Below, in pieces: positions 1 through 23,223 of a stretch of DNA of 25,101 bases. Where the stretch lies: the IMG/VR virus record IMGVR_UViG_3300009165_000006, one strand, 5' to 3'. A program made the position numbers and the translations under genes. The notes under the pieces are model-generated. The model was not told the origin of the DNA and made no database searches. It saw nothing but the letters and a program-made list of their open reading frames with translations. Position 1 is the stretch's first letter, and every line of letters starts with the position of its first letter. Source of the DNA: a virus.

Positions 1-304
1 GGGCGTCCCTCGTAGCCTGTGTTTACCTACTAAGAGGAAGGATTGGCTCATTCCAGGGAACAGAGATCGTCAGCTTACTTTGACCTAGCAGGGCCGGTTC
101 GGCCTAGCTGAGGCATGGTATCTACATCGGATAGAATCTACATCTATAGGATCTACATCTGGTGTCTATCGGTTCACCTGTTACGACCCACCGAAGTAGG
201 CGGCCTCAGGTTTCTTACCTGGCTGACCCCAGAAGGAAGGCGCTAAGCCTATTCGGGCGCTGGGCAAGAAGAACTTACGACCCCCGGAGGATACCCCAGG
301 ACGG

Positions 305-2860: not shown

Positions 2861-3079
2861 TTACAAGCTCGAAGCCACTGATCGACCTAGCTCGGTCGGA
2901 ACCAAGATGATTAGAGACCCACCTAAACTTTTAGTCTTCGACACGTACCCGAGCTCGAGCAGCTTAAGAGCCGGCTTGTATTCCGGGACACAACTCCAAG
3001 GAAACCCCACACCCGTAATCTTGATGATCTCTTGGAGAGTTTTAACCTGGGTGGGGGTTAGCTTTTTCGTCTTGGGCAT
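2861..3079 (-). CDS. Family B small wHTH DNA-binding protein (LexA N-terminal-like), copy 1
   Basis: 72-aa ORF. Promoter TTGAGG-17-TAATAA-6-ATG at 3080-3113. Paralog of 305..544. Confidence 0.65.
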   Translation of the reverse strand: MPKTKKLTPTQVKTLQEIIKITGVGFPWSCVPEYKPALKLLELGYVSKTKSLGGSLIILVPTELGRSVASSL

Positions 3080-3109
3080 GCCTCTTATTACGCGCGAGCT
3101 TCGAGAACC

Positions 3110-3340
3110 TCAACCGGTTTCGTCGACCCAATTCCGTCCCGTTGCCGGGTTCCAAGCCTTGAATCCCGCCCTGGTGATCCCTAGGGCGAGGGCCTTTGAG
3201 TCCGCATCGTCTCCACGTAGAGTGGGAACGTACCCATCAAGCATGCGAGCTGCTAGCTCAGCAAACGACTTGAATGCCGTCACCTTGGCAGTCAGTTCGT
3301 TGAGCGAGGCAAGCATGTCAGCCGTATGTTTGAGGGTCAT
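3110..3340 (-). CDS. Family A hypothetical protein (76 aa), copy 2
   Basis: Paralog of 2611..2844. Promoter TTGAGT-17-TAATAC-6-ATG at 3341-3375. The tandem P-A-P-B-A unit at 2580-3375 is about 85% identical at the nucleotide level between repeats. Confidence 0.65.
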   Translation of the reverse strand: MTLKHTADMLASLNELTAKVTAFKSFAELAARMLDGYVPTLRGDDADSKALALGITRAGFKAWNPATGRNWVDETG

Positions 3341-3349
3341 GCCCTAGTA

Positions 3350-3559
3350 TTACGTGCCAGTCTTGCCAAACTCAACCAAACTTCGACGGCGTTCCTGCCT
3401 TTCTACGAGAATCCTATCCCCACACGTGGCAGCCCGGATGCTGTCACATGTGAGTTTTGTATGGAACTCACATGTGACAGCATCCGGTGGAACGTCTTTC
3501 ACCAAACCGAGCCTTACGGCTCTCAAAAAGTGTGCGACTTTCCCCTCAACTGATGACAT
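3350..3559 (-). CDS. hypothetical small protein (69 aa), or a small RNA; contains a 23-bp perfect palindrome
   Basis: Well-formed promoter TTGAGA(3588-3593 rc)-17-TACTAC(3565-3570 rc)-5-ATG. The ORF reads through the 3434-3487 hairpin and into the next gene's promoter, so protein-coding status is uncertain. Confidence 0.3.
   Translation of the reverse strand: MSSVEGKVAHFLRAVRLGLVKDVPPDAVTCEFHTKLTCDSIRAATCGDRILVERQERRRSLVEFGKTGT
3434..3487. repeat. perfect 23-bp inverted repeat (CCGGATGCTGTCACATGTGAGTT / AACTCACATGTGACAGCATCCGG) with an 8-nt loop
   Basis: Read directly: arms 3434-3456 and 3465-3487 are exact reverse complements. Confidence 0.9.
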
Positions 3560-3606
3560 GAGTCGTAGTATGTACCAAAAAGCGGACTCTCAACCAGAAA
3601 GTATGT

Positions 3607-3674
3607 AACTACACGTAGTTTTATGATTGGCTCATTACTATTGCTACGAACATGCTCTAAAACTACGTGTAGGC
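3607..3674. promoter_or_regulatory. conserved bipartite element, copy 1: AACTACACGTAG-16-TTACTATTG-21-ACGTGTAGGC (outer arms form a 14-bp inverted repeat)
   Basis: Same three blocks with identical 16/21-nt spacing recur at 8473-8540. Spacer sequences differ. Confidence 0.6.
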
Positions 3675-3976
3675 AATCAAGAGGCTCGAGCTTATAAGCT
3701 CGAACAAGGGACTAGCTTACATGTAGTTACTCAATACGCTGGTAACTATAGGAATGAGCCAAGAGCTTACCTACCTGTAAGCAATCTACTAACTATCCAG
3801 GCCACCCCCATTGTTCTGGTCATAAACGAGAGTGACCCTGGCTCCCCACCACCCTCGAGTCTTGATGCACTGCTCGTAACCTTACCGGCAACCTATCTTA
3901 CAGGTCAGCGTCAAACTCAAAATCCGGAACTGGACCAAGGCATTCCCCCCTACGGCGCATTAACCCTCCCCCAGGG

Positions 3977-4591
3977 TTAGCACAACGACCTCATTATCCG
4001 CTGGTACCGAGTAAGTACGGGAGCCCTTTCTTGTGGGGAATTCCTTAGAAGCCAATCTTGGCAATCAGTAAGTTGAGCTCTTCTCTCTTTAGCACTTTTA
4101 GCACTAGAAGTGGCTGCTCGAGCAGCCCAAGTCGTAGCAGCCCTAGCAGCAGCCTGAGCATTAGCCAAAGTAGTCATAACAGAAGCAGCCCAAGCAGCAG
4201 CCTGAGCAACCCGAGCAGCTCTATGAGCAGTCCTCCAAGCAGGCATTGAAGGAGCATCCTCAGACAGAACCTCCCAAGCAGCCTTAGCAGCCCTTTCTAG
4301 TTCTTCCTTTGAGACCGCTTCCCCGTTAACAAATCGGTCACACAGATCTAAAGCTCGAAGGGTATCAGGATGGAACCAACCTGTCTTCGTACAGCCTCGG
4401 CGTGCAACCCGAGCCACTACATAGACCATTCCCCTCCGCCCAAGAATCTCTTCATGTAGGAGTACCCCTACTTTAGCATTAGACGGAATCGATGCTTCAA
4501 ACAACTCCATCACTCCCATCGGGAGTAGTTCGTCTGGGATAAGGTCGGAAGGCTCCCAACTCTCAAGGAGTTCTTTCGTAATGGTGATCAT
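3977..4591 (-). CDS. Family D hypothetical protein (204 aa, Ala-rich C-terminal half), copy 1
   Basis: Paralog of 7826..8380 (shared blocks LIP.E.LPM...FEA.I.S..K.G.LL.EEILG.RGMVYV.AR.ARR.CT.TGW.HP.TLRALDLCDR, ...KERRAQL.DC..WL). Promoter TTGACT(4624-4629 rc)-17-GATAAT(4601-4606 rc)-9-ATG. Confidence 0.65.
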   Translation of the reverse strand: MITITKELLESWEPSDLIPDELLPMGVMELFEASIPSNAKVGVLLHEEILGRRGMVYVVARVARRGCTKTGWFHPDTLRALDLCDRFVNGEAVSKEELERAAKAAWEVLSEDAPSMPAWRTAHRAARVAQAAAWAASVMTTLANAQAAARAATTWAARAATSSAKSAKERRAQLTDCQDWLLRNSPQERAPVLTRYQRIMRSLC

Positions 4592-4647
4592 ACCACCCTC
4601 ATTATCCGTGGATCACCTCCAAAAGTCAACTGGTGTACTTTTGCCCC

Positions 4648-4923
4648 ATGAAAGAGAAGCCTGAACCCGAAAGGAAAGGCTGGGTACCGGTCACTGAATG
4701 CCATCCCCCAGTCGATGAACCACTACTCGTCTACCATCGTGTAGATCGATACCCGAGCGGCGAAGTGCATAGCTGGGACGCACTCCTCGTTGCAAAGTAC
4801 GATCGCACGTCTCATTGGTTAGTGGAATCGGATGCTGGCTATTGGGTACGCTTTTCCAAGTCCGAGCTAGTGACCCATTGGATGTATTTGCCCGAGCCAC
4901 CCGGCTCTTTGAGGTCCCCATAA
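4648..4923 (+). CDS. hypothetical protein (about 91 aa, Trp-rich)
   Basis: ORF 4633..4923, with the start more plausibly at ATG 4648 (MKEKPEP). TACTTT-6-ATG geometry upstream. Divergent from family D gene. Opposite-strand ORFs look less protein-like. Weak. Confidence 0.35.
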   Translation: MKEKPEPERKGWVPVTECHPPVDEPLLVYHRVDRYPSGEVHSWDALLVAKYDRTSHWLVESDAGYWVRFSKSELVTHWMYLPEPPGSLRSP

Positions 4924-5078: not shown

Positions 5079-5447
5079 TTACCCCTGCGAGTCTCCCACC
5101 TCTTTGATGGCTCTCTCCATCTGAGTGGCCAACTGACGTAGTTGGTTGGTCGTAAACTTCCGAGCCAACGCCTGGAGCCTCTCTAAGGCTACTACGTATA
5201 AGATATGAGCCATCTCTTGAGCATCCTGGGCCTCATAGAGCGCCACCATCTCAGGGGTGGGTGGGAACCATATGTGCCCGTCAGCCCAACGAGTTTTCTT
5301 CGGGATTCGTACCCCACTGGTAAGAATGACCATTGTCTTGGTTACCCGCTCAACAGTGACCTCACGCCAACTACGACCCACTTGGTGGTACCACTTCGAC
5401 CCAGCGACCGTATTTCGAACGGCTTCCTCAAGAATAGCGTTGCTCAT
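5079..5447 (-). CDS. Family C hypothetical protein (122 aa), copy 1
   Basis: Paralog of 6029..6400 and 7424..7780 (shared ...E.A..NTV.GSKWY..v...W..v.VE.VTKTT........I.K...........W.PPT). No canonical family promoter. Three ACTCAA (= TTGAGT) repeats lie upstream. Confidence 0.6.
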   Translation of the reverse strand: MSNAILEEAVRNTVAGSKWYHQVGRSWREVTVERVTKTMVILTSGVRIPKKTRWADGHIWFPPTPEMVALYEAQDAQEMAHILYVVALERLQALARKFTTNQLRQLATQMERAIKEVGDSQG

Positions 5448-5578: not shown

Positions 5579-6091
5579 ATGACGAGATTTCTCGTACAAT
5601 TCGAGACCGAGGACGATCAAGCCCTCATCAAGGCCCTCGTCTTCCTTCAGGAGAACGGCTTCAACCCAACCCTTCAGGCAGTCGCGGATGAACCAAAGCC
5701 CGTAGCACGTATCCCGGTAGTGGCACGCCTCGACCGGGATACGGCGTGGATGAAACTCCTCTCCGCCTTGAAGCCGAACCCCAAGAAGGTCCTCCAGTTC
5801 ATCAAGACCGGCCCCCCAAATGGTCTCTCCGCTAGGATGATCGCTGACCAGTTCAAGCAGAAACCAAACTGGTTCACCGGAGTCCTCAACGGCGGAATCC
5901 AACGTAACGTCAAGTCCGCCGGATTCCAGCTCGAAGACGTCGTTGTCATTACCCAGTATCGCGGAATGATCACCTACGCCCCCGGCCCAGAACTCAAACG
6001 CAGGGAGCTCAAAAGTCCCCTACCACCTTCACCGGCCTATGCCCCTATTGACGGTGACGAGGTCAATGAGGCTCTCCATCTGGGTGACTAG
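5579..6091 (+). CDS. hypothetical protein (170 aa), possible wHTH-like segment (VLQFIKTGPPNGLSARMIADQF)
   Basis: Protein-like composition. Its 3' end overlaps the convergent family C gene by 63 nt (antisense overlap). Confidence 0.5.
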   Translation: MTRFLVQFETEDDQALIKALVFLQENGFNPTLQAVADEPKPVARIPVVARLDRDTAWMKLLSALKPNPKKVLQFIKTGPPNGLSARMIADQFKQKPNWFTGVLNGGIQRNVKSAGFQLEDVVVITQYRGMITYAPGPELKRRELKSPLPPSPAYAPIDGDEVNEALHLGD

Positions 6092-6400
6092 TTGCCGGAG
6101 CTGGTCAGCTGTAGTCCACTGAGCAATAGCTCGAAGCTTCTCTAGAGCTGCCAGGTAAGAGGTCATCGCGTCCTTCTTCGCCATGACCTCCAGAACTAGG
6201 TCCTGAGTGGGTGGAAACCAGATCCGCCCAGCATGATCACGACAGGTTGCCTTCGAGATGCAAGTGCCCCCCAGAAGCACAACCGTAGTCTTGGTTACCT
6301 TCTTGACCTCAACCGCATGCCACTTACCATGGATGCACTGATACCACTTTGAACCAGGTACCGTATTTCGAATGGCCTCTTCGCGATCAACTGCGTTCAT
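6029..6400 (-). CDS. Family C hypothetical protein (123 aa), copy 2
   Basis: The track ORF 6029..6439 was trimmed to ATG 6398-6400. This ATG sits 5 nt after the conserved TAATAG (6406-6411 rc) with TTATGG -35 (6430-6435 rc) and aligns with the paralog N-termini (MNAVDREEAIRNTVPGSKWYQ). Confidence 0.65.
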   Translation of the reverse strand: MNAVDREEAIRNTVPGSKWYQCIHGKWHAVEVKKVTKTTVVLLGGTCISKATCRDHAGRIWFPPTQDLVLEVMAKKDAMTSYLAALEKLRAIAQWTTADQLRQLVTQMESLIDLVTVNRGIGR

Positions 6401-6583
6401 GTTCTCTATTACGCTTGCCCCCTGCGAACCCATAACCAAAATCTATAGCGTTCGCCTGTGGTACCCCCAAGAAACTAGCTTTGGCTGGGGTACTGGGAAG
6501 TCGGCCAACATCAAGTACCCCATCCGGAACCCAGTGCTTGGCTCCCCATTCTATGAAACTTAAGCTGGGTTTGGAGTCAACTT

Positions 6584-7423: not shown

Positions 7424-7780
7424 TCAGTGAATCTCCGACAGGTCAATGAGGCTCTCTAGCTGAGTGGCTAGCTTGAGAAGTTGAGCAGGCGTAGCACGCT
7501 GAGCTGCCTCTCGAAGCTTCTCTACGGCCGCCTCGTAAGCAACCCTGGCGACCTCAAAGTCCTCGAACTGCTTGACGATGTTCTGAGTGGGTGGATACCA
7601 AGCCCAACCATCTTGGTCACGACAGTTCCTCTTCGAGATGCGAGTCCCCCCTTCGAGGTAGATCGTAGTCTTGGTTACCCTCTCGACCAAGCCCACTACC
7701 CACTTGCTATTCACGCACTGATACCACTTCGAACCAGGAACCGTGTTCAGGATGACAGCTTCTCGTTCGACTTTGCTCAT
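7424..7780 (-). CDS. Family C hypothetical protein (118 aa), copy 3
   Basis: Promoter TTGAGT(7811-7816 rc)-18-TAATAG(7787-7792 rc)-6-ATG. Paralog alignment as above. Confidence 0.7.
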   Translation of the reverse strand: MSKVEREAVILNTVPGSKWYQCVNSKWVVGLVERVTKTTIYLEGGTRISKRNCRDQDGWAWYPPTQNIVKQFEDFEVARVAYEAAVEKLREAAQRATPAQLLKLATQLESLIDLSEIH

Positions 7781-7825: not shown

Positions 7826-8380
7826 TTAGGCCCGTCTCGTAAGCCACTCCCGACAATCGGCGAGTTGGGCTTTTCTCTCTTCCTTCTCACTAGGGACAGC
7901 ACTAACAGCCGTTCGAATAACTGTTAGTGCCCTAGTCCGGGCACTAGTATCAACGGCAACAGCCCAAGCAACTCGAGCAGCCCCATGAGCAGCCTCCCAA
8001 GCATCCATTGAAGGGGCATCATCAGCCATTGAAGGAGCCTCAGAAACAGCCAAAGCAGCTGCCCCTAGCGCTTTAGCTGAGATCTCTTCCCCCTCAGCGT
8101 AACGGTCGCATAGGTCGAGAGCTCGAAGGGTAGCAGGATGGTCCCAACCTGTCTCTGTGCAGGCTCGGCGCGCAGCCCTAGCCGCCACGTAGACCATCCC
8201 CCTTCCCCCAAGAATCTCTTCACGTAGGAGAAGCCCTATCTTGTTCTCAGAGGAAATCGGGGCTTCGAACACCTTCAGCGCCTCCATTGGAAGTTGTTCA
8301 CTCGGGATGAGGTTGGAAACCTCCCACCCCTCAAGAAGTCCACTCGTAAGAACGACCCCATTTCGTTCGGTTTGGCTCAT
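7826..8380 (-). CDS. Family D hypothetical protein (184 aa), copy 2
   Basis: Promoter TTGAGA(8409-8414 rc)-17-TAATAG(8386-8391 rc)-6-ATG. Paralog of 3977..4591. Confidence 0.7.
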   Translation of the reverse strand: MSQTERNGVVLTSGLLEGWEVSNLIPSEQLPMEALKVFEAPISSENKIGLLLREEILGGRGMVYVAARAARRACTETGWDHPATLRALDLCDRYAEGEEISAKALGAAALAVSEAPSMADDAPSMDAWEAAHGAARVAWAVAVDTSARTRALTVIRTAVSAVPSEKEERKAQLADCREWLTRRA

Positions 8381-8472
8381 GCCCTCTATTACGCACGAGC
8401 ACCCGAACTCTCAACTTCTTTCTACTCTATCTATGTAAGTAGAGGACTACCCCATGAGGGTACGGGTTCCTA

Positions 8473-8540
8473 CGGTTCTTACAACTACACGTAGGCAAGA
8501 ACCACGCTCGTTACTATTGATTCGAGCGCGCTCGTCACTT
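8473..8540. promoter_or_regulatory. conserved bipartite element, copy 2: AACTACACGTAG-16-TTACTATTG-21-ACGTGTAGGC
   Basis: Identical block order and spacing to 3607-3674. Internal GAGCGCGCTC palindrome in this copy. Confidence 0.6.
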
Positions 8541-8739
8541 ACGTGTAGGCTACCTTATCTTTCGTACCTACCATAGCTAATCATACCCTCGCCTACATAG
8601 GTATAGACGTATGACAAACACTACCTCATATCTTATAGGACTACCCTACCTACACTTGCGCGAAGCGCCTGTTCTGGTGTGGTTATCCGACACCTACTAC
8701 TTTCACAGTAAATCACGATGCGCCGAAGGCGCATCGTCG

Positions 8740-8940
8740 GATGTGTGTAGGAAACCTCACAACACAACTGGGGGTTGTGTAAAACACACAGTTCTGCAGG
8801 GAAACTGTGTGCTGTTTTCAAATGTGTAGTAAAAACACTGCACAAGTCAATTGCACGAAAGTGCCGTGATTTGTATAGTGTTTTGCCGTTTGTCGCGTTT
8901 ATTTGGAATTTTAGATCAGGTGGGTTTGATATTCGGGAGG
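8740..8940. other. AT-rich, A-tract and short-hairpin-rich region (candidate DNA unwinding element) in the divergent control region
   Basis: Local AT enrichment with TGTGT/ACACA repeats and small inverted repeats (e.g. ACACACAGTT..AACTGTGTG, GATGCGCC gaa GGCGCATC at about 8715-8735). Sits between the minus- and plus-strand gene blocks. Confidence 0.4.
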
Positions 8941-8944
8941 TCTG

Positions 8945-9140
8945 GTGATATACAAAACGGTCGGTCGGTGCTATACGAGCCCGTAGGCCGAGTGATATAC
9001 AAAACCGAACCAAGAACCAAAGTGATATACAAGCCCACGGGCAGGCTTCGCAGGCCAATGGGCTTGTATATCACTGACCCAAGAGCCGGGATAATTTGTA
9101 TATCACTGACCCAAGAGCCGGAAAGGAAAGTGATATACAA
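8945..9140. repeat. iteron array: 6 copies of GTGATATACAA (direct at 8945, 8992, 9022, 9130; inverted at 9065, 9096), including a 26-bp direct repeat TTGTATATCACTGACCCAAGAGCCGG x2 (9065-9090, 9096-9121)
   Basis: Read directly. Spacings of about 30-31 bp (three helical turns). Typical of plasmid/phage origin iterons, partition sites or operator arrays. Confidence 0.75.
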
Positions 9141-9175
9141 GTTCAAAGCTGCGGTGTATGACGGCTTATTCGAGC

Positions 9176-9526
9176 ATGGCCGTCAAGAACTACACGAAAA
9201 CTATACTCATTCGGGCAAGGGATGGGAAAGCACGGTCATGGGCGCTTCGCGCCAGTGAGAGTGGGAAGCGCCTATCGACTTGGATACGGGAGTCACTCAA
9301 TGAGAGGGCTGGGTACAAGCCTGATGGGTTGTCATCTGAGTCCATCTCACCTGAGCCTGAGGTGGGACCTGAACCAGTTATCGAGCCTGAAGTAGGGGAG
9401 TCAACTTCAGAGTCTGAGCGACCAGTTGACGAGGGCACTCAAGGTTCACCTGTTGGGGTTGGAGCCTCTCTCATTACGGATGACGAGATGCGGGTGATAC
9501 TTGATGACGTGTTGGGTAGGGGTTGA
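9176..9526 (+). CDS. ribbon-helix-helix (CopG/Arc/ParG-like) DNA-binding protein with acidic/Ser-Pro-Glu-rich disordered C-terminal tail
   Basis: N-terminus KTILIRARDGKARSWALRASESGKRLSTWIRESL fits the beta-strand/helix/helix RHH pattern. Start chosen at the second ATG (MAVKNY); ORF track starts at 9158. Immediately follows the iterons. Confidence 0.55.
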   Translation: MAVKNYTKTILIRARDGKARSWALRASESGKRLSTWIRESLNERAGYKPDGLSSESISPEPEVGPEPVIEPEVGESTSESERPVDEGTQGSPVGVGASLITDDEMRVILDDVLGRG

Positions 9527-9901
9527 GCTACTGACGATGTTCTAGCTGGCTGAGATGTCATGTGGCTCCATTACGGTCGAGGGGGTCTTCTTGGTGGGTT
9601 GCCACTTGAAGGCATCGGGGAACTGAAGGGTACCGAGCTTGAGGGGTATTGCTTAGGGTTGAGGTGCCACAGGTCATCGTCTATACCAACGACAGTGCTG
9701 CGGTTGGTATTGGTGTTCCAAGACTCTCTAGGCTTGGTGGTGGCTTATGGGGAGGTGTTCTATCTTGAGGGTTGGCCTAGGGCGTGTCCGTAGGCGAAGT
9801 AGAAACCGACTGTGCTATTCTGGCCGAGTCTTTGTCCTTCGATGGCGGGACAGTAAACCAAAAGCTTGCGTTTGCCTACGCGTTTTAGTACACATAGGCG
9901 T

Positions 9902-10288
9902 ATGACAGCATTTGCCCTTGGAGACATCGTTCTCGTAGCACGTCAACCGAAGGATATGATGGTTCACATTGTTGGCGAGGTAGGAGTCATTGAATCCTTG
10001 ACCTCTACCCATGCATCGATTACGTGTTTGAAGCTTGACGGTTCGATGTCGGGGTGCGGGGCTGTTCTACTGGACTGTCTTGAGCACGAGACCCGCTCTC
10101 ATTGGAGGCGAGCCAAAGAGATTCGGGACGCGAACGCTGCACAGAGCTTTGCCGAGGGTATGGAGCGGACCGAGAGATACCGTGCTCGAATGGCTGCACT
10201 GTCGGCCAAGTATGGGATCTCGGTTGAGAACGTGAAAGCTCTCTACTCGGACATTGTAGCGCTGAATAATCGGGGGTGGTGGTCGTAA
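9902..10288 (+). CDS. hypothetical protein (about 128 aa)
   Basis: ORF 9866..10288. ATG 9902 (MTAFALGD) preferred. Protein-like composition. First gene of a start/stop-overlapping plus-strand operon. Confidence 0.5.
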   Translation: MTAFALGDIVLVARQPKDMMVHIVGEVGVIESLTSTHASITCLKLDGSMSGCGAVLLDCLEHETRSHWRRAKEIRDANAAQSFAEGMERTERYRARMAALSAKYGISVENVKALYSDIVALNNRGWWS

Positions 10289-10494
10289 TGATGTACCGAG
10301 TAACGTACAACGTCTTTCTATCCTCTTCTGGTGAGCGGGTTACGGGTAGCCAGGTCATTGTTGAGGTCTCGGTCGAGGGTGGGGAGGATGTCAATGACGT
10401 AGCCTATGGGGAGGCGTCCAACTTGTTGGTTGAGAAGTTTGTCGTAGGTGGTGGTGAATCTCTTGGACCGCCTGTATCTGTTGAGAGGCTATGA
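10276..10494 (+). CDS. hypothetical small protein (about 67-72 aa)
   Basis: Overlaps the upstream stop and the downstream start (ATGATG at 10491). Start uncertain (10276 or 10291). Confidence 0.4.
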   Translation: MVVVMMYRVTYNVFLSSSGERVTGSQVIVEVSVEGGEDVNDVAYGEASNLLVEKFVVGGGESLGPPVSVERL

Positions 10495-10964
10495 TGGACG
10501 AAGTGATTGAGCTACTGGAGAAACGTGGGGCTTGTGATTCATCTCTTGATTGGTTGAGCGGGTTACCTTTGGGGACGACACTTCAAGAGGCGTGGGAGCG
10601 ATGTGAGAATGGGTCATGGCTTCTTTGGTTACTTGTTCGAGTCTACCCTAAGAGTGCGGCTTACCACCAGTTCATACTCAGGGTAGCGAATCGGGCAATC
10701 GAGGTAGCCGGCGGTGACTCTGTTCTTGTCCAAGTTGTCCGGGACAAGGAAGTCTGGTGTCAAGTGGCAACACCTTTGGAGTTGGAGTCTTCGATAACGT
10801 GGTCGAAGGATGCAGCTTGGCAAGCGAGCCTTTCACTTGTGTGGGACCGTTTGGGTAAGGGGCGCTCGCCCGAGTGGTTTGCAGAGCTGAGGGCTCGGGC
10901 AGATGATCTTCGTTCTCTCTTCAGCAGGCCGGATCTGAGCTTAGTTCGCAAGGGGAAGTCGTGA
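10491..10964 (+). CDS. hypothetical protein (157 aa)
   Basis: Clean ORF in the operon. No recognisable motifs. Confidence 0.55.
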   Translation: MMDEVIELLEKRGACDSSLDWLSGLPLGTTLQEAWERCENGSWLLWLLVRVYPKSAAYHQFILRVANRAIEVAGGDSVLVQVVRDKEVWCQVATPLELESSITWSKDAAWQASLSLVWDRLGKGRSPEWFAELRARADDLRSLFSRPDLSLVRKGKS

Positions 10965-10980
10965 AGTTTGGACCTTTCTC

Positions 10981-11265
10981 ATGCCCCTTGGAGTTTGTTT
11001 GTACAAAAGAAGCGAGGTAGCCGTGAAGTTTCAAATCGTAACCTACAACCAGGCTCAAAGGCTGTGTTGTTACCCTTCAACAAGTAAGAAGCGCTACTTA
11101 GCGATGACTGTTCCGTTTGGGCTTCAGGGCGAAGAACCTTTTCGAGCTGAGGGTGATACTCGGGAGGAGGCCAAGGCGAACCTGATAGTCTTGGTTCAGC
11201 GGTTCCTTGACGATTACCCTGAGCTTGAGGTAACTGAGGTTGACCTTCAACCAAGTCACGTTTGA
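10981..11265 (+). CDS. HicB-like / UPF0150-family small protein (antitoxin-like fold)
   Basis: VPFGLQGEEPFRAEGDTREEAKANLIVLVQRFL matches the UPF0150 signature (P.lPGc...GeTlEEAlenl). Start may instead be GTG 11023. No HicA-like partner recognised nearby. Confidence 0.45.
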   Translation: MPLGVCLYKRSEVAVKFQIVTYNQAQRLCCYPSTSKKRYLAMTVPFGLQGEEPFRAEGDTREEAKANLIVLVQRFLDDYPELEVTEVDLQPSHV

Positions 11266-11386
11266 CAAGGGGGCGAGCACCGAGGGAAGGTTGGGAGTCT
11301 CAGGGGAAGTACTCGAAGGCTTCCCCTGTTAGGGGGATCAACGTCTGACTTCTTTGATGGGGAGGCCTGGAAGCGGAAGAACGTGG

Positions 11387-11590
11387 TCATACTTCGTCAT
11401 TGGAGATCAGGATATAGGGCTGACCTTCTTCGTAGCCGAAGTCTTCGCCAGTAATGTCGGCCTTGGTTGGTTCAACCTTGTCTATGATGAAGGGCGGAGC
11501 GTCTATGTGGACGAGGTAGAAGACCTCCAGGTCACCTGGGTTGGATTCTCGTATGGTTTGAAGTCTTTGGATGAGGTTATCGAGTGTCAT
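11387..11590 (-). CDS. hypothetical acidic small protein (67 aa); the alternative is the plus-strand ORF 11354..11650
   Basis: Both strands are open here. The minus-strand product looks more protein-like but it sits inside an otherwise plus-strand operon and lacks a clean promoter. Unresolved. Confidence 0.25.
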   Translation of the reverse strand: MTLDNLIQRLQTIRESNPGDLEVFYLVHIDAPPFIIDKVEPTKADITGEDFGYEEGQPYILISNDEV

Positions 11591-11927
11591 GGTGGCAAAC
11601 TACAGGGATCCAGTGCGGATGGTACGGGACATCCGGGCTCACGTCCATGAGCATGGGCATCGAGTTCAGCCGGCGGACGACCCAATGAGGCAGATGCTTG
11701 GGTACATGTGTCCGACCTGCGAGGTGTTTTGGACGTGTGGGTTACTGGCGCTTCGGGAGCTGGACGAGGCACGACTTATGGGCACACCTCTGACGGGTGT
11801 GGTTCAGAGGCGGGACGTACGGGAGCGGCTGACGGCCTACCTGAACTGGGAGCTTGACGACCCTCGGCCTACAGAGCCCTCAAAAGTTCCTGTTTTAAGT
11901 CGATACAAGCGGCCATGGGTGGTATAG
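11571..11927 (+). CDS. His/Cys-motif domain protein (family E), single-domain copy
   Basis: Paralog of 23224..23856: DPVRMVRDIRAHVHEHGHRVQPADDPMRQMLGYMCPTCE vs DPVQMIRDIRYHVRLTGHRAIPGDDPRRAMLGWICSTCE. Both end RY(K/H)RPWV(V/I). True start probably ATG 11589 (MVANYRDPV). Confidence 0.6.
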   Translation: MRLSSVMVANYRDPVRMVRDIRAHVHEHGHRVQPADDPMRQMLGYMCPTCEVFWTCGLLALRELDEARLMGTPLTGVVQRRDVRERLTAYLNWELDDPRPTEPSKVPVLSRYKRPWVV

Positions 11928-12421
11928 AATTGGCTATTACGATGGTCTATGAGTTCAAAGCCAATGGGAAAGTCATTTACGGATATCGGTTCGATCATCA
12001 ACTACTTCAAGTAGTTGATGGGATGGAGCCCGTGTGCCAGTCAAACTCTTCCCATGTAGTTGTACCGGGCGGGCTCTACTGTCCCCAGTGTGGTTCAACG
12101 GTGAAAAAGCGGGATCGGATGGTGCCTTCGCCAATCGTAGTCGAGTATGCTACTCAGTATGGGATGTCCATTGACGTGGCGCTATCTACTCTTCTCAACT
12201 GTCAGCATCAAGTACCTCAGCAGTGGTTTGATCCGAACGATAGTGAAGACTGGCTATTTGGGGTTACGGTCGTGGATGGAGGGGCGAACACTTGCACGGA
12301 GTTCTACCCGTTTTGGCATCCGGATCGAATCGAGGGCTTAGAGAAGGCGGTTCTGCTCTTCACTGACCTCGGATTGGATCCCGCAGGGGCGAAGTACTAC
12401 CTCTTAGTGAAACCGTCATGA
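11915..12421 (+). CDS. hypothetical protein (168 aa) with CPQCG zinc-ribbon-like motif
   Basis: Start overlaps the upstream stop within a CCATGGGTG context. The same context occurs at 23842-23850. Confidence 0.55.
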   Translation: MGGIELAITMVYEFKANGKVIYGYRFDHQLLQVVDGMEPVCQSNSSHVVVPGGLYCPQCGSTVKKRDRMVPSPIVVEYATQYGMSIDVALSTLLNCQHQVPQQWFDPNDSEDWLFGVTVVDGGANTCTEFYPFWHPDRIEGLEKAVLLFTDLGLDPAGAKYYLLVKPS

Positions 12422-12636
12422 CGGTGTTAAGTGCACTCATGACTAACTCGAAAGCAGTGCCGAACCAAGTCATCTATCAAGGGGTGCTGGATGATGGACA
12501 GATCATACTCACCTCTGTCCATCATCCTTCGGAGTATGTGAGTGAGGATGGGAAGGTGGTCATGACGTGTGAATCTGTCGAAGAAATCCCACTAAACAGC
12601 AGTTTCCCAGAACCCAAGACCCACTCCCAATCTTAA
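12418..12636 (+). CDS. hypothetical protein (72 aa)
   Basis: ATGA start/stop overlap with the upstream gene. Confidence 0.45.
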   Translation: MTVLSALMTNSKAVPNQVIYQGVLDDGQIILTSVHHPSEYVSEDGKVVMTCESVEEIPLNSSFPEPKTHSQS

Positions 12637-12849
12637 CACAAAGGTCTCTGTGGACATAGTTGTACAGAAATAAGAGAGGTGGTTACCCAGTGACTAATGC
12701 ACCTATTACTCCATGCTAAGTATGACTCAACACCTAAATGAGGATTCAAGTCCAAGGGTACATTCCGCCCTAAAGAAACCTAAGAAGCTTAAAGGACGTT
12801 CGAGAGTTGACAAGGATTGCAGGTTAGTCTCGAAAGGTTACTTGGTACA

Positions 12850-13095
12850 ATGTACTCTGAAGTTCTAAGGTATTTAGCAGTTGGGCTGGGTGGGTACTCC
12901 CTGGCTTTGCTGACGATTGCGGTGATCGATTGGCAGGCGAATCGCATTCGTCGACGGCGTGGCTTTTGGTCAATCTCGCCCGATGGTTCCGACGTGATGT
13001 GGCAGAAGGGCGATTTGAAGCTTCACTTTTCTATGATCTCTCGTGAAATTCAGCAAGAGCAACCAGTCCAGACGCAACGTAAAGGGATGGACTGA
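12850..13095 (+). CDS. small membrane protein (one TM helix YLAVGLGGYSLALLTIAVI followed by RRRR); holin-like topology is speculative
   Basis: ORF 12817..13095, with ATG 12850 preferred (AAAGG about 13 nt upstream). Convergent with the beta-helix gene. Confidence 0.4.
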   Translation: MYSEVLRYLAVGLGGYSLALLTIAVIDWQANRIRRRRGFWSISPDGSDVMWQKGDLKLHFSMISREIQQEQPVQTQRKGMD

Positions 13096-13207
13096 AAGGA
13101 TACTTTCAGGGCATGGCCGACCTATTACGGATCTGCATCTTCATCGGACTGTGGGTCTGCGAAGTCTATCTCTGTCGTATGCTTTATCGAGCGTGTTGAA
13201 AGAAGGT

Positions 13208-13250
13208 GGTCTTCGAGTGATCCTAGTTCGATTGGGCTCGAAGGACCTTT
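13208..13250. terminator. hairpin GGTCTTCGAG...CTCGAAGGACC followed by TTT, between convergent genes
   Basis: Inverted repeat read directly. Short T-run only. Confidence 0.35.
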
Positions 13251-13253
13251 GAC

Positions 13254-15648: not shown

Positions 15649-15767
15649 GAAACCCCAGATGTAATCTCATCAGAGAGTTATCTGACCTAGGGTTACCTGG
15701 TCTAAACCCTTGATATACTTATACTAATCCTAAGCCTGGTAGGTTTCCGTAGCTAGCGACATAGGTT

Positions 15768-15830: not shown

Positions 15831-16577
15831 ATGAAAAGTGACAACCTTGATGTTCGGATGCGACGGCTTGAGTGCTATCATGCGCTGGAAGTCTTACCTG
15901 GTGCCTATCCCATTGTTCGTGTTGATGGGCGGAGCTTCACGAAGCTGACCCGAGGAATGGAGCATCCATTCGATGTGAAGTTTCACGAGTGCATGGTGGC
16001 GACGGCGAAGGCTTTGTTGATTGAGTTAGGTGGACTCTATGCATTCACGGAGAGTGACGAAATTTCGGTTCTACTGCCTCGTGATACGGATCTATTCGGT
16101 CGCGAAGTGGAGAAGCTTGTGTCGGTCTCTGCGGGGATAGCGTCGTCGACCTTTTCGTTGGAGCTGGGCAAGCCTGGTCACTTTGACGGTCGGGTCTGGG
16201 TGGGGATCTTGGAGAACGACGTGGTCGATTACTTCCGATGGAGGCAGTCGGATGCCTTTCGCTGTTGTCTGAACTCCTGGTGTTACTGGACGTTGAGAAA
16301 GGCTGGGAAGAACGCCAAGCAGGCGACGGAGGTCCTTGAAGGTCGGAGTTTCTCGGCCAAGAACGAACTACTCTTTCAGCATGGGATCAATTTCAACAAG
16401 CTCGCTACCTGGCAAAAGCATGGTGTCGGTCTCTATTGGGAGGACTTCGAGAGGACTGGGTTCAACCCCAAGACCAAGGCACCCACGACGTGCACTCGTC
16501 GGAAGGTTTTGGTGAACCGGGATCTACCACGGGGTTTGGAGTACGTTAACCTCGTGCTACGGGTAGGTGGGTTATGA
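15831..16577 (+). CDS. Thg1-like protein (tRNA-His guanylyltransferase family; 3'-5' nucleotidyltransferase)
   Basis: Hallmark blocks PIVRVDGRSFTKLT (RxDGxxF), YAFTESDEISVLL (SDE carboxylates), FDGRVW, CYWTLRKAGKNAKQATEVLEGRSFSAKNELLFQHGINFNKL. Stand-alone transcription unit. Confidence 0.75.
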   Translation: MKSDNLDVRMRRLECYHALEVLPGAYPIVRVDGRSFTKLTRGMEHPFDVKFHECMVATAKALLIELGGLYAFTESDEISVLLPRDTDLFGREVEKLVSVSAGIASSTFSLELGKPGHFDGRVWVGILENDVVDYFRWRQSDAFRCCLNSWCYWTLRKAGKNAKQATEVLEGRSFSAKNELLFQHGINFNKLATWQKHGVGLYWEDFERTGFNPKTKAPTTCTRRKVLVNRDLPRGLEYVNLVLRVGGL

Positions 16578-17260: not shown

Positions 17261-17607
17261 CGATCGGGACACTTCCTAAGTAAACTTAGGCATAGCCTTC
17301 GATCCATCGATTCACCAATTTCGAGGAATATCGACATTCCTCGACCATTTTGTCCTGGAACGTCCAGGTGATCTAGGAACTACTTTCCCCGAAAGGATCA
17401 AGTCCTCTTGGTGTTTGGTCAACTTGATTTTCCTCAAGTCTTTTACCACAGCAAGGAAGTGCGCGGAACGCGCTGTTTCGTGCCGTGAACCCGATAGACT
17501 TGCTTTTCAAGGACCCATCAGATCTACCACTTTACGGAATTATGACCTGAGGCCGGTATGCTAAATCCGATTGGAATTCTTGTCAAGTTGAAAATGATCG
17601 GGTAACT

Positions 17608-20715: not shown

Positions 20716-22143
20716 ATGAAGAAGAGTCGGTTCTTCATGCTGCACCCCGAGTGTAACCCAGGGAAACTAGCCTCCCTTGAAGCCCTCCATGTCGAATACG
20801 TCTCTTACGTTCGGATCTGCGTCCAGACGATGCTTGAAGCTCGTAGGCTGACTTTACCTCGTTCCAAGAAGCAAGAGTTCTTTCCACGAGCTGAGAAGCT
20901 CACATCTCAGATTGAGAAGAACGCCCGAGACCACGCTATTCAGATCGTGAGTACTTGAGCTAAATCAGTCTACGTCCGGAAGCTCAAGACCCACATTCGA
21001 TTGGCTTTCAAGAGGGGTGAAATCACCGAGGACTTCCGAAAGCAACTCTACACAGTAGAGAAGTATCTGGTTCATGAGCCAAGGGACACTGTCTCCCAAG
21101 AAGCTATCGATCTGTATTGGACTTGGCTCTCAGACCCAGAAGTAGTGGGAAATTTCCCAAGCGTGTCCAATCGGATTCCAATGAGGATGTCGGAAAACAC
21201 TTGCTCATTGGAAGATCCAGAAGAAACTGTCCACGCTGATTTTTGGCTCAAGATCTCAACCTTGGTTTCGCGTAAGCTTGCCTGGTTACCATTGGTTGGT
21301 AACCCTTATGTGAGGAAAGCTTCCGATGTTTCCAAGGGAATCCATGCGAGGAAAGACCGAAAGGGCCGTTGGCGTTTTGAAGCGGTTGATATCAAGGAGT
21401 GGCTCGTTCTGGAAGCTGAGCCAGAGTTACCTCGAGTAGGAGTCGACGTTGGGCTGAACGTAGTAGCGGCTACTTCGAGTGGACACACGTTTGGGGCTGA
21501 CCTTCAACCAAAGTTCAACCAGCTCTACAACAAGGTCAGGGCGGTTCGCTCGAACCGCCAGAGACAGAATCTTAAGGACAACTCACCCAGGCTTGACCGC
21601 CTAGAGTCCAAGCTTTCTGGGCTTACTAAGAGTATCACAGGACGAGTATCAAATGAGCTTCTTCTAGCTTATCCAGAATCGGTCTTCGTTCTTGAAGACC
21701 TTGATCTCTCTGGATGTCGAGGTCAGAAACGTTTTTGTTATCGGGCTTTAGCTCACGCTCTTGAGTCAAAAGCCCCGACGGAAGTTGTCAATCCGGCCTA
21801 TTCGTCTCAGACATGCCCGTCATGCGGGCATGTCTCCAGACTTAACAGGTCTGGAACCAGTTTCGTCTGCCGCCAGTGCGGCAGACGTTCACATGCTGAT
21901 GTGGTGGGAGGGATCAATCTGCTCAGACGTTCTGAGAGCAAACAGATTGGTCTCGATGATCATCCGTCGGAAGTGAAGGAAGTGCTTGTGAGGCTATACT
22001 GGAATCGAGGTAATCTCGGTCGGGAGTGTCCACAGGACTTCTTGAATAAGTTCGCGCCATTATCGTATGGCCGCAGGCTTACTACCAGAGCATCGCCCCG
22101 CAAGGGGCAGGCTGGCACAGCCTCTAATCAGGTAGCTGCTTGA
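20716..22143 (+). pseudogene. tnpB: TnpB / IS605-IS1341 OrfB-like RNA-guided RuvC nuclease homolog; reading frame interrupted by a single in-frame TGA (20956-20958) and carrying a roughly 70-aa C-terminal extension
   Basis: N-terminal TnpB-like start (MKKSRFFMLHPE...) and ORF 21001..22143 are in the same frame, separated only by the TGA. Downstream RuvC-I GVDVGLN, RuvC-II VFVLEDLDL, zinc ribbon CPSCGH...CRQCG and RuvC-III HADVVGGINLL are all intact. No TnpA gene nearby. Confidence 0.75.
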
Positions 22144-22810: not shown

Positions 22811-23223
22811 AAGACATGCAAATCTGACTCAGGGTTCTTCGGGTAAGGATTAACGGATTACACGGTCAACATGAAAAGTCATAGATATCGCGATAGAGGA
22901 AGCATTCCGACGAGCTGCTATTGAGCGACGGGGTTATACCGGGAGGAGCCTCGGATCTGGGCTACCGTTTATAGTCAAACTGAGAACCTTCGAGTGGTCT
23001 CTACGAAAGAGGAGGATGGTTTAGTGGCTCTTGAGCCCTTCTTAGAGGATTTGGGTAAGGCTCTATCTAGTTGGTTCTATGTGGACTCCATACTAGAGGC
23101 TTCTCGCTGAGGCGGGTATTTGTAGCCTGAGCATGGGGCGACAATTCGATGCTCTTGGGCCACCCGCAAGGTTTGAGGGACTTCTCCGGGACCTAGAGAC
23201 AGTACTTTGGAAAGGGTCATTGG

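Follow-up and report, generated by a model that had tools for sequence, protein, structure and literature searches.

The window analysed here, a stretch of 25,101 nucleotides from IMG/VR virus record IMGVR_UViG_3300009165_000006, carries a cassette made up of non-coding DNA rich in hairpins (about 550 bp), an array of short sites and a gene for a ribbon-helix-helix (RHH) protein. It lies at a strand switch, with minus-strand genes up to position 8380 and plus-strand genes from 9176, as an earlier note on this DNA had placed it. We found the same parts, with 5-12 sites per array, in eight divergent metagenomic phage lineages (the window and seven others), and the cassette belongs to an uncultured large tailed phage. 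Because the flanking genes vary between lineages (HNH-type endonuclease genes are inserted to the left of the cassette in two, and T5orf172/GIY-YIG-like genes lie to its right in four), the non-coding region and the RHH gene constitute the conserved unit; in related lineages, the neighbourhood also carries anti-defence genes (Apyc1 and Tad2-like). A megablast of the full window against phages yielded no match, a search of IMG/VR for related loci returned just a weak match to the low-complexity tail of the protein (L008), and the family alignment recovered no relatives from IMG/VR and GTDB genomes. Scanning IMG/VR for two 11-mers 15-40 bp apart returned seven loci (L001-L007), all of them unrelated tandem repeats dissimilar to the window, which we discarded; a more specific two-site pattern added one metagenome contig (L021), with zero matches in genomes or IMG/VR.

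Within 8945-9140, the 11-mer GTGATATACAA occurs in six exact copies, four on the plus strand (8945, 8992, 9022 and 9130) and two on the minus strand (9064 and 9096), against an expectation of 0.00 in 100 dinucleotide-preserving shuffles, bearing out the original description of six 11-bp repeats in mixed orientation. There is in addition a degenerate seventh site, GTGCTATACGA, at 8968. The distal direct sites (8945..9032, plus strand) occupy 8945-8955, 8968-8978 (the degenerate copy), 8992-9002 and 9022-9032, and the proximal sites (9064..9140) occupy 9064-9074 and 9096-9106 on the minus strand and 9130-9140 on the plus strand, the last two lying at -80 and -46 relative to the ATG at 9176. Sites 9022(+) and 9064(-) are held in the 22-nt arms (91% complementary, with centre GGCTTCGCAGG) of a large inverted repeat, H4 (9021..9075), and the embedded 26-bp direct repeat reported earlier is an exact match between 9064-9089 and 9096-9121. 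Centre-to-centre, successive sites are 23, 24, 30, 42, 32 and 34 bp apart, such that the proposed phasing of about 30 bp holds only approximately, within a range of 23-42 bp. The partial iteron reported at about 15710-15717 exists, as TGATATAC at 15711-15718, but only at a chance-level frequency, because a given 8-mer should turn up about 0.8 times in 2 x 25 kb, and we rejected it as a meaningful site. No exact copy of the 11-mer was found outside the arrays in about 77 kb (the window, L010, L014, L020 and L030), which argues for a local, not a genome-wide, regulator.

The RHH gene and its product

As listed, the open reading frame beside the array begins at 9158, but homologues of its product (P0002-P0009 were compared) all begin MAVKNYTK, and the true start is therefore probably the ATG at 9176, giving a plus-strand gene (9176..9526) of 116 codons. 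Its product comprises an RHH domain of about 46 aa (9176-9313), which is the structured part of the protein, followed by an acidic disordered tether of ~55 aa (~9314-9478) and a conserved C-terminal amphipathic helix (~9479-9517); an embedded hairpin, GGCGCttcGCGCC, lies within the gene at 9241-9253. An AF2 model of the N-domain, built from a 21-sequence alignment, reached a pLDDT of 85 and shows a strand-helix-helix topology (residues 1-15 extended, a helix at 16-28, a turn at G30 and a helix at 33-44), with just six to eight residues ahead of the beta-strand. When this model was compared with the PDB by Foldseek, every one of the ~35 best matches was an RHH protein, the best being Arc, CopG, AtaR, NikA, TacA, PutA and FitA. 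The C-terminal helix spans residues 102-114 (mean pLDDT of 75 for residues 101-110 and 64 for 111-116), and a full-length monomer model from six sequences consisted of one long helix (pLDDT 57) and was uninformative.

By sequence, the protein is linked to curated RHH families only transitively: it has itself no Pfam match at E<=0.1 and no PHROG family, whereas the N-domains of family members match DUF6290, HicB and NikA-like models at E-values of 0.02-0.14, and distant relatives reached through the family profile match NikA-like, DUF6290, TacA1 and RHH_1 models, some of them above threshold. The best sequence match in the PDB is NikA (2BA3, E=0.1). Neither a tblastn search of the protein against phages and plasmids nor a homologue search with a truncated N-domain alignment returned any match. 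Together, the profile links and the predicted fold uphold the earlier recognition of an RHH gene adjacent to the repeats, with its start moved to 9176. RHH proteins of the NikA/TacA/CopG/Arc-like families bind operators at their own promoters; this protein would act on the repeats as dimers.

The resemblance to NikA-like relaxosome proteins, the closest relatives both by sequence profile and among solved structures, raises the question of whether the cassette is an oriT-like or packaging site, which the RHH protein would mark, as a NikA-like accessory factor, for a relaxase, a terminase or a homing endonuclease. NikA-like accessory proteins likewise have an N-terminal RHH domain and bind repeats in hairpin-rich DNA just upstream of their own gene, and the hairpins beside the repeats recall oriT anatomy. 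Moreover, one distant relative (P0018) joins the RHH type to a T5orf172/GIY-YIG domain, and in the four lineages with a T5orf172 gene, that gene either overlaps the RHH stop codon or directly adjoins it. However, T5orf172 is missing from the window and from three other lineages with known downstream sequence and thus falls outside the conserved unit. Neither a relaxase nor a terminase gene adjoins the cassette, and no relaxase family was matched, the downstream genes being small ORFs of unknown function or T5orf172. Unlike NikA-like systems, the element is a tailed phage with no conjugation context, and its setting among small unknown genes and putative anti-defence genes resembles an early region, a location atypical for pac or cos. 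A role as transfer or packaging site is, on this balance, very improbable.

Conserved hairpins left of the array

At its left edge, the non-coding region is marked by a promoter-like bipartite gene-start motif, GTTGAG-N13-GTGCGTAATA-N6-ATG (8381..8418, minus strand), which belongs to the neighbouring leftward gene (7826-8380) and not to the cassette; the same motif stands ahead of 10-11 leftward genes in the window and of 23 genes when all loci are counted. The leftward gene at 7826-8380 is thus preceded, no more than 40 bp from its ATG, by a promoter-like motif, and we therefore rejected the idea that 8381-8740 is merely its 5' leader. The left arm (8430..8610) consists of two to three units of ~55 bp with the palindrome-bearing motif CTACRTGTAGGCAA, copies of which lie at 8485-8498 and 8539-8552 and, in part, near 8592; the motif has 10 matches in the window where 2.7 are expected and is kept in other lineages, and a paralogous copy of the arm occurs at 3560-3790. 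Next come stem-loop H1 (8638..8688), with a GC-clamped tip, GCGCgaaGCGC, at 8658-8668, and the central stem-loop H2 (8702..8750), with a 10-bp core stem, ACGATGCGCC-gaa-GGCGCATCGT, at 8715-8737. These are followed by a GT/CA-rich segment (8751..8831), whose stem-loops ACACAAC-tgggg-GTTGTGT and CACACAG-N13-CTGTGTG appear in the MFE structures of both strands and are partly conserved, and by stem-loop H3 (8832..8884), with tip GCACgaaaGTGC. The pairing is conserved: H1 folds in all lineages (95-100% of cells paired), H2 contains 16 pairs, seven with compensatory changes (89% paired, against 24-45% in slid controls), and H3 contains 16 pairs, six of them changed on both sides (86% paired, against 18-51% in slid controls). 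An AT-rich block (8875..8944), containing TTTATTTGGAATTTTAG and GGGTTTGATATTCGGGAGGTCTG and with columns conserved across lineages, adjoins the first site. This flank had been described as an AT-rich A-tract region, of which the AT-richness stood (8813-8913 has 36% GC against a window mean of 52%, a joint minimum among 100-bp stretches of the window) but a true A-tract did not.

Pairing kept by compensatory changes in H1-H3 would be expected if 8400-9175 gave rise to a long, highly structured RNA of the rightward operon, be it a 5' leader or a non-coding transcript, to which the array would be incidental, with the RHH protein acting on the DNA within the transcribed leader as a roadblock or processing regulator. 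In line with this, 8620-8900 folds far better than shuffles (z = -4.79), G.T wobbles outnumber A.C on the plus strand (15 vs 6), and to the right of 8740 the plus strand is G-rich, as are all coding strands of this phage. However, folding is just as good for the minus strand (z = -4.74), G+T richness confounds the wobble bias, and the H1 loop alternates between GAA/GGA and TTC/TCC among lineages: loops that flip to their reverse complements speak against strand-specific RNA loops. Searches for tRNAs and Rfam families produced no match at the gathering threshold, nor any in 8300-9300 even at E<=1, and a global RNA structure of the non-coding region was rejected, the covariation term of RNAalifold being unfavourable (+2.28). 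We consider a structured leader or RNA to be improbable.

The array as a proposed operator

In all eight lineages, the array lies directly 5' of the RHH gene, and the encoded proteins are 42-62% identical overall. The 11-mer columns are invariant in 41-44 of the 44 sites and the flanks variable; spacers, copy number and orientation differ among lineages, whereas the 11-mer is almost unchanged. Sites lie 19-43 bp apart (centre-to-centre) in mixed orientation, and the gaps between 11-mers measure a minimum of 8 bp and typically 12-32 bp. Relative to the ATG, the proximal site is found at -46/-47 and the second site at -78 to -85, both in eight of eight lineages. Farther upstream, the distal block with its spacing of 23/24 and ~30 bp is kept in L012 and L014, recurs in L010 with 24/30-bp spacing and without the degenerate site, and is expanded in L020; palindromes equivalent to H4 are seen in L010 and L023.

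One lineage departs from this pattern on both sides: in L022, seven of the eight sites read GTGCTATACAA, an A4 -> C change made in concert, and its RHH protein has the most divergent N-terminus of the lineages, including the beta-strand (NYPRTIVIRAK vs NYTKTILIRAR). Sites are unchanged wherever the beta-strand is unchanged and changed where the N-terminus differs, a covariation that comes from this one lineage and reflects a single evolutionary event but argues, indirectly, that the RHH protein binds the repeats. Judged from sequence, the RHH protein is the probable binder of the 11-mers, and the link between the two that the earlier note implied is reinforced by conservation across eight lineages, the near-invariance of the 11-mer, its fixed distance from the ATG and the concerted change.

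The best supported reading is now the one that the earlier note had named as its own refuting case, a multi-site repressor operator. We favour, at something short of even confidence, an array that is an autoregulated multi-site operator heading the rightward operon. RHH dimers would bind the 11-13-bp site R-GTGATATACAA-R, present in 5-12 copies in the 160-380 bp that immediately precede their own gene; the proximal sites (-46 and ~-80) would lie across or beside the promoter of the rightward operon, whose first gene is that of the RHH protein, and site occupancy would feed back on RHH synthesis and on the gene block 9176-13252, most likely as an early shut-off. The distal sites may provide a cooperative loading platform, with the flexible acidic tether of ~55 aa joining the dimers to the C-terminal amphipathic helix and allowing contacts, between dimers or with a partner protein, that are independent of fixed spacing or orientation. 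Tethered contacts free of fixed geometry would account for the drift in spacing, orientation and copy number around sites that stay invariant. We infer repression rather than activation; the promoter presumably lies near the proximal sites, and the tail presumably has a bridging or docking role.

The promoter-like motif found ahead of 10-11 leftward genes is missing from the rightward genes, so the rightward block needs another control region, for which the array region is the sole candidate. The stretch between the last site and the ATG (9141..9175, plus strand) contains the conserved GCGGTGTA and is a putative core promoter and leader, with no Shine-Dalgarno sequence. A scan for sigma-70-type promoters gave no conserved candidate for the rightward operon; the sole sigma-70-like candidate whose position is conserved is that of the leftward gene. 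The protein shares its fold with RHH autorepressors (P22 Arc and Mnt, CopG, RHH antitoxins and the Aca-type repressors of early shut-off), with Foldseek TM values of ~0.7 to Arc, CopG, AtaR and TacA, and, as in those systems, its gene adjoins its own sites, here among small unannotated genes resembling an early region. However, Arc, Mnt, CopG, antitoxin and Aca-type repressors use one or two (pseudo)palindromic operators and have compact oligomerisation domains, unlike the dispersed sites, long acidic tether and terminal helix of the phage cassette. Several points weigh against the operator: the number of sites, 5-12 over 160-380 bp, far exceeds what the known phage RHH repressors (Arc, Mnt, CopG-type) employ, the promoter scans mapped no promoter for the rightward operon, the covariation of protein and site comes from a single lineage, the acidic tether and docking helix have the architecture of an adaptor such as ParR and not that of a simple repressor, and the ~550 bp of conserved hairpin-rich non-coding DNA upstream of the array is unexplained by a pure operator model.

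Origin and docking-site readings

The number of sites (5-12), the acidic tether and the docking helix keep alive the alternative that the cassette is a previously undescribed genome-handling element (an origin or centromere-like docking site) of large uncultured phages, which we regard as possible but rather unlikely. The RHH protein would then be a minimal adaptor, with a head of 46 aa that reads DNA, an acidic tether of 55 aa and, at its end, a docking helix, working without an adjacent motor or initiator and forming, by virtue of its tether, a complex indifferent to the spacing and orientation of sites.

In its replicative form, a reading that we find doubtful, the distal direct repeats beside the AT-rich block would be origin iterons and the RHH protein a minimal origin-recognition adaptor, whose acidic tail and terminal helix would bring in a replisome component, of phage or host, whose gene lies elsewhere; the inverted proximal sites would autoregulate, as in iteron plasmids. 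Acidic tails with hydrophobic tips are a replisome-docking device (as in T7 gp2.5 and gp4 and in SSB), to which the acidic tail and terminal helix of this protein may be compared. The layout resembles that of an iteron replicon, with structured or AT-rich DNA, direct repeats, inverted repeats at a promoter and the gene of the binder: P1, F, R6K, pSC101, RK2 and the lambda ori have the same order of elements, with repeats ~23 bp apart, and the distal spacing is 23-24 bp and ~30 bp in several lineages (the window, L012 and L014, and 24/30 in L010). Autoregulation through inverted copies is expected in both. The lowest-GC 100 bp of the window adjoin the array, the chain of conserved hairpins is tipped GAA or GAAA with loop inversions indicative of extrusion as DNA, and the homing-endonuclease-like neighbours suggest an indispensable, highly conserved target. 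However, iteron replicons employ a Rep protein of 30-40 kDa with winged helices (or lambda O) where the phage has a 13-kDa RHH protein, and RHH proteins are, to our knowledge, no class of phage or plasmid initiator. The sites are dispersed and irregular in spacing and orientation, and their copy number varies between 5 and 12. In the AT-rich block, conservation extends to the sequence, beyond composition alone, and the GC content of the block is no more extreme than that of other intergenic regions, several of which are similar to 8813-8913. No DnaA box with at most one mismatch lies in the module (TTATCCACA at <=1 mismatch occurs six times in the window, with 4.4 expected, and nowhere within 8381-9175, a feature that depends on the host and so carries limited weight). 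A literature search on RHH proteins, iterons and phage origins yielded no relevant work.

Cumulative GC skew, computed on partial genomes, has its minimum within the non-coding region in the window (at 8716, within H2) and in L010, L014, L020 and L021, and minus-strand genes to the right of the minimum show a skew of ~0 to +0.06, not a negative one. However, the skew mostly follows gene orientation, its minimum lies elsewhere in L023, and the far-left plus-strand genes of L010 have positive skew. The sign change falls where transcription changes direction, and although the minimum recurs at five loci, a strand-independent signal is not reproduced in every lineage.

The earlier note had remarked that no Rep or ParA gene is recognisable next to the array, and our Pfam, PHROG and motif searches agree, finding neither in the window nor in the recovered loci of the other seven lineages. 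The ORFs of 90 aa or more there include no Rep, helicase or primase and no Walker-A protein, the Walker-A pattern [AG]xxxxGK[ST] being hit in only one spurious 90-aa frame; ParM-, ParA- and TubZ-like genes are adjacent in none of the eight lineages, and no ParM, StbA or actin-like Pfam match was obtained among window ORFs or neighbours in related loci. With no Rep, ParA, ParM or Walker-A gene nearby, no DnaA box and dispersed sites, the origin or partition function first proposed for the module was not supported, although the anatomy described for it is correct.

In the docking form, which we consider quite unlikely, the RHH protein would be a ParR-like adaptor coating the array, with its C-terminal helix coupling the phage genome to a filament or motor whose gene, of actin-like, tubulin-like or other type, lies elsewhere, and with the array doubling as operator. 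Centromere repeats are typically labile in copy number and spacing, as these are; Thg1 homologues are found chiefly in phages of 140-500 kb, and some large phages carry cytoskeletal genes. A close architectural parallel is R1 ParR/parC: ParR, of ~117 aa, has an N-terminal RHH domain and a C-terminal partner-binding peptide, and the 11-bp iterons of parC, each bound by one dimer, flank the promoter and serve as operator and centromere (PMC2241845). Array sizes are also similar, with 10 iterons in parC and 5-12 sites in the phage. Omega of pSM19035 likewise has mixed-orientation repeats that overlap promoters (PMC9499535), and in 35 of 44 phage sites the reverse complement of the 11-mer, extended by one flanking base (TATCACT), agrees with the omega heptad WATCACW. 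In the omega and ParG/parH systems, an RHH dimer reads a short asymmetric repeat that may be direct or inverted, as would be the case at the phage sites, and arrays of 7-10 repeats overlap promoters, uniting operator and centromere.

ParR and omega, however, need contiguous repeats (PMC2241845, PMC9499535), at least four gap-free heptads for omega (PMC9499535), and parC consists of contiguous direct repeats in two blocks of five, whereas the phage sites are dispersed in mixed orientation with variable spacers of 8-32 bp. In R1, parM is the adjacent operon partner; genes downstream of the phage RHH gene differ between lineages, with no such partner among them. By sequence, neither Pfam nor the PDB links the phage protein to ParR, ParG or omega (the hhalign probability against omega is 1.2%), although its beta-strand, KTILIRAR, can be placed in register with KTVRVRAD of omega, a correspondence that is not significant. 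Its structured part is only ~46 aa and is followed, unlike in ParR, by an acidic low-complexity tether; the tail of omega is N-terminal, basic and partner-stimulating, with ParA adjacent, where that of the phage protein is C-terminal, acidic and without ParA. Nor did we find evidence of plasmid-like maintenance for the phage.

Hardly any origin, partition site or early-gene switch has been mapped in large uncultured phages, and the locus offers a compact, strongly conserved pair of protein (116 aa) and DNA site (11 bp) that is directly synthesisable. Should it be only an autorepressor, it would still represent a new RHH family, covered by no Pfam model, with an unusual operator logic in which many dispersed sites are read by tethered dimers; as an origin or docking site, it would show that a ParR-like RHH adaptor can part from its motor gene and serve the genome of a lytic-type phage. 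The comparison also yields a natural specificity pair, GTGATATACAA and GTGCTATACAA with their cognate proteins, that could be of use for the study of RHH base recognition or for orthogonal regulators. A literature search with the 11-mer returned solely unrelated primers and shRNAs. One of the homologues, P0005, sits on a 435-kb contig.

The 11-bp array and its conservation

The 11-mer GTGATATACAA is present in six exact copies within 8945-9140, four direct (+ strand; 8945, 8992, 9022 and 9130) and two inverted (- strand; 9064 and 9096), just as the earlier note had counted them, and none arose in 100 dinucleotide-preserving shuffles; a degenerate seventh site, GTGCTATACGA, lies at 8968. The 26-bp direct repeat described within the array is likewise exact (9064-9089 = 9096-9121), and both 22-nt arms of an inverted repeat (9021-9042 / 9054-9075) contain 11-mer sites. 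Because the centre-to-centre spacings are 23, 24, 30, 42, 32 and 34 bp, the proposed phasing of about 30 bp holds only loosely. The AT-rich flank exists, in that the 100 bp from 8813 have 36% GC (window mean, 52%) and are the joint lowest of the window, but other intergenic regions are similar; and the partial copy reported near 15710 is there (TGATATAC at 15711), but chance alone would supply an 8-mer about this often over 2 x 25 kb.

We compared the window with seven other metagenomic phage lineages (L010, L012/L021, L014, L020, L022, L023 and L030), in all of which non-coding DNA alignable with window positions 8381-9175 extends for 650-950 bp ahead of the homologous gene. Mean column identity is 68% over five lineages, and 61% over seven for the part left of the array. 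Every lineage has an 11-mer array of 5-12 copies within the last 160-380 bp before the gene. Among 44 aligned sites, each of the eleven positions is invariant in 41-44, position -1 is a purine, and the flanks vary. Copy number, orientation and spacing (19-43 bp, with a single case of 79) differ among lineages, site-plus-spacer units being visibly duplicated; all eight lineages keep the proximal site at -46 (or -47) relative to the ATG and a second one at -78 to -85. No exact 11-mer occurs outside the arrays in the ~77 kb examined. This is a real, conserved protein-DNA cassette, and the non-coding region and the ribbon-helix-helix (RHH) gene form the conserved unit, its flanking genes not being conserved.

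The L022 protein, which diverges most in its N-terminus and beta-strand (NYPRTIVIRAK vs NYTKTILIRAR), is accompanied by an array in which seven of eight sites read GTGCTATACAA, a single event of covariation that would be expected if the protein bound its sites. Site invariance amid drifting surroundings, the fixed register to the gene and this concerted change all agree with such binding, and the RHH protein very probably recognizes the 11-mers.

The RHH protein and its probable control of the rightward genes

Since the eight homologues of ORF 9158-9526 (P0002-P0009) all begin with MAVKNYTK, or differ from it by one or two conservative changes, the gene most likely starts at ATG 9176 and encodes 116 aa. 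In alignments, a highly conserved N-domain (~46 aa) is followed by a variable, acidic, Pro/Glu/Ser-rich tether (~55 aa) and a conserved C-terminal motif, T-D-D-E-M-x-x-L-L-D-x-x-F, in a predicted helix at residues 102-114. The window protein itself matched no Pfam or PHROG family. Its initial assignment as an RHH protein is nonetheless supported by prediction: the N-domain profile reaches distant proteins matching NikA-like, DUF6290, TacA1 and RHH_1; the closest sequence match of solved structure is NikA (2BA3, E=0.1); an AlphaFold model from a 21-sequence alignment (pLDDT 85) has an extended N-terminus and two helices; and roughly the top 35 Foldseek matches in the PDB are all RHH proteins (TM ~0.7), including AtaR, NikA, Arc, TacA, CopG, PutA and FitA. 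P0018, a distant relative, combines RHH, T5orf172/GIY-YIG and RHH in one fused protein. The L030 homologue (P0009, 8936-9172) has just 78 aa, with helix B seemingly disrupted after LSMW; it still has SDDEMKALLDEAL as its C-terminal motif and an array of five sites, and could be a variant or a copy in decay.

Through the fixed proximal sites, the protein would probably autoregulate the rightward operon. Many small genes have, 5-6 nt upstream of their ATG, the bipartite motif GTTGAG-N13-G(Y)GCGTAATA, both in the window (10-11 leftward genes; minus-strand motif starts at 8418, 7819, 3597, 3379, 3117, 2618, 1967, 932, 582, 18342 and 18840) and in L010, L014, L020-L023 and L030 (23 genes). The motif resembles a -35/-10 pair whose placement would yield nearly leaderless transcripts. 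The copy at 8381-8418, GTTGAG-N13-GTGCGTAATA-N6-ATG when read on the minus strand, belongs to the leftward gene bounding the module; none precedes a rightward gene of the window, the RHH-headed block included, and that block would therefore be controlled differently. The distribution suggests two promoter or temporal classes. To the right of this motif, the left arm (8430-8610) holds two to three ~55-bp units containing CTACRTGTAGGCAA, and a paralogous copy of the left arm (8381-8600) occurs at 3560-3790, upstream of leftward gene 3350-3559, where CTACGTGTAGGCAA is matched exactly at 3663 and by related copies at 3605, 3713 and 3771, but with no 11-mer sites.

As the module's primary function, we tentatively favor autoregulation or early shut-off. 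The fold, and a gene placed beside its own sites, are also seen in phage RHH repressors (Arc, Mnt, CopG-like, Aca-like), but these use one or two operators each. The long flexible tether could offer a mechanical reason for the free spacing and orientation of the distal sites. A simple operator, however, does not account for the surplus of sites, the docking helix or the conserved DNA rich in hairpins, which keeps other readings in play.

Stem-loops and the origin and partition readings

The stretch from 8620 to 8900 is a chain of stem-loops (folding z = -4.79 and -4.74 vs shuffles on the two strands). H1 (8638-8688) and H2 (8702-8750, core 8715-8737) are paired in 93% of cells, against 24-45% in slid controls, with 8 pairs changed on both sides vs 1.8 in shuffles; in H3 (8832-8884) pairing is 86%, and 6 pairs are changed in this way. 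GC clamps with GAA, GGA or GAAA loops form the stem tips. Hairpins of this type are rare, the whole window containing 6, of which 3 lie inside the module; one outside it, the triloop hairpin GCGCGgaaCGCGC at 17461-17473, sits in another stretch without a long ORF. Hairpin loops switch to their reverse complement between lineages, and this extends into the RHH coding region, where GGCGC-NNN-GCGCC (9241-9253) is kept in all eight lineages with a loop of TTC/TCC (Leu-Arg) in some and GAA/GGA (Arg-Ser) in others, so that loop inversion accounts for the amino-acid dimorphism at residues 24-25 of helix A. Such flips point to hairpin dynamics at the DNA level, not to a strand-specific RNA loop. G.T wobbles favor the + strand (15 to 6), a weak signal confounded by composition; a global RNA structure of the non-coding region was unsupported (covariation term +2.28), and Rfam returned no match for it even at E<=1. 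We consider a structured leader or roadblock arrangement quite improbable, and a nicking or cutting site highly improbable.

The earlier note had read the module as an origin or partition locus. It shares with iteron plasmids the order of AT-rich DNA, direct repeats, inverted repeats near the promoter and the binder gene, but initiators there are of another protein class. The window (minimum at 8716), L010, L014, L020 and L021 have their cumulative GC-skew minimum inside the non-coding region, and minus-strand genes right of the module have a skew of ~0 to +0.06. In these comparisons, which cover genome fragments only, skew nevertheless mainly tracks gene orientation; a distant left plus-strand block in L010 is positive, and the L023 minimum lies elsewhere. 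As the note had observed for Rep and ParA, no match to Rep, ParA, ParM, helicase or primase families was found in the window or the larger neighbors of related loci, no ORF of 90 aa or more in the window or in the loci fetched for the other seven lineages has a Walker-A motif, and the module has no DnaA box at one mismatch or fewer. A replication origin is unlikely.

In build, the cassette is closest to ParR/parC of R1, where ParR is an RHH adaptor of ~117 aa whose C-terminal peptide binds the filament. parC consists of ten 11-bp iterons around the promoter, each taking one dimer, and is both operator and centromere (PMC2241845). The omega protein of pSM19035 uses asymmetric, orientation-tolerant repeats that overlap promoters, with the heptad WATCACW (PMC9499535). 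The cassette repeats are likewise asymmetric and tolerant of orientation and would overlap promoters, and the heptad lies within the reverse complement (TATCACT) of 35 of the 44 sites; hhalign places KTILIRAR of the RHH protein in register with omega KTVRVRAD, though not significantly. Both systems, however, depend on repeats without gaps and on a motor gene next to them, whereas the cassette sites are not contiguous and no motor gene lies beside them. A ParR-like docking site is rather improbable.

Neighboring genes and phage context

The module occupies a strand switch, as first described, with - strand genes up to 8380 and + strand genes from 9176 to ~13252. On its left in L010 and L021, a plus-strand HNH/endonuclease-VII-type gene (8718-9224 and 4370-4867, respectively; phrog_3322, E ~5e-33) takes the place of the 100-170 nt at the left end of the non-coding DNA; on its right, the RHH stop codon lies within or directly beside a T5orf172/MUG113 (GIY-YIG-like) gene in L014 (6313-6957), L021 (5925-6536), L030 (9176-9673) and the contig of homologue P0005. 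Homing-endonuclease-type genes at both sides fit a target sequence highly conserved in the phage group.

The source is an uncultured large tailed phage. A 654-aa protein has virion or tail-fibre PHROG domains, and most phage homologues of a Thg1-like tRNA-His guanylyltransferase gene (15831-16577, Pfam 1.2e-26) belong to 140-500-kb genomes; a search of the window for tRNA genes found none, and none of 50,697 phage records matched the window at the nucleotide level. DUF551 and a TnpB-like gene are also encoded, the remaining ORFs being of unknown function; related loci contain Apyc1 and a Tad2-like gene. The TnpB/Cas12f-like gene at 21001-22143 (380 aa) has OrfB_IS605 and TNB domains, and a second, from ~24292 past the window end (L026 2145-4526, 793 aa), matches the TNB domain weakly. 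An independent 10,384-bp metagenome contig (JGI Ga0105091_10001451, L009) has an end coinciding exactly with window position 1, which might reflect a repeat, a physical genome end or coincidence. The leftward block comprises several families of paralogous small genes with 67-80% DNA identity between copies; paralogous sets in the window are 3977-4591 and 7826-8380; 5079-5447, 6029-6439 and 7424-7780 (a family with a weak Phage_ProQ_C_like match); 2577-2805 and 3077-3304; 339-498 and 2871-3027; and 11583-11732 and 23213-23364.
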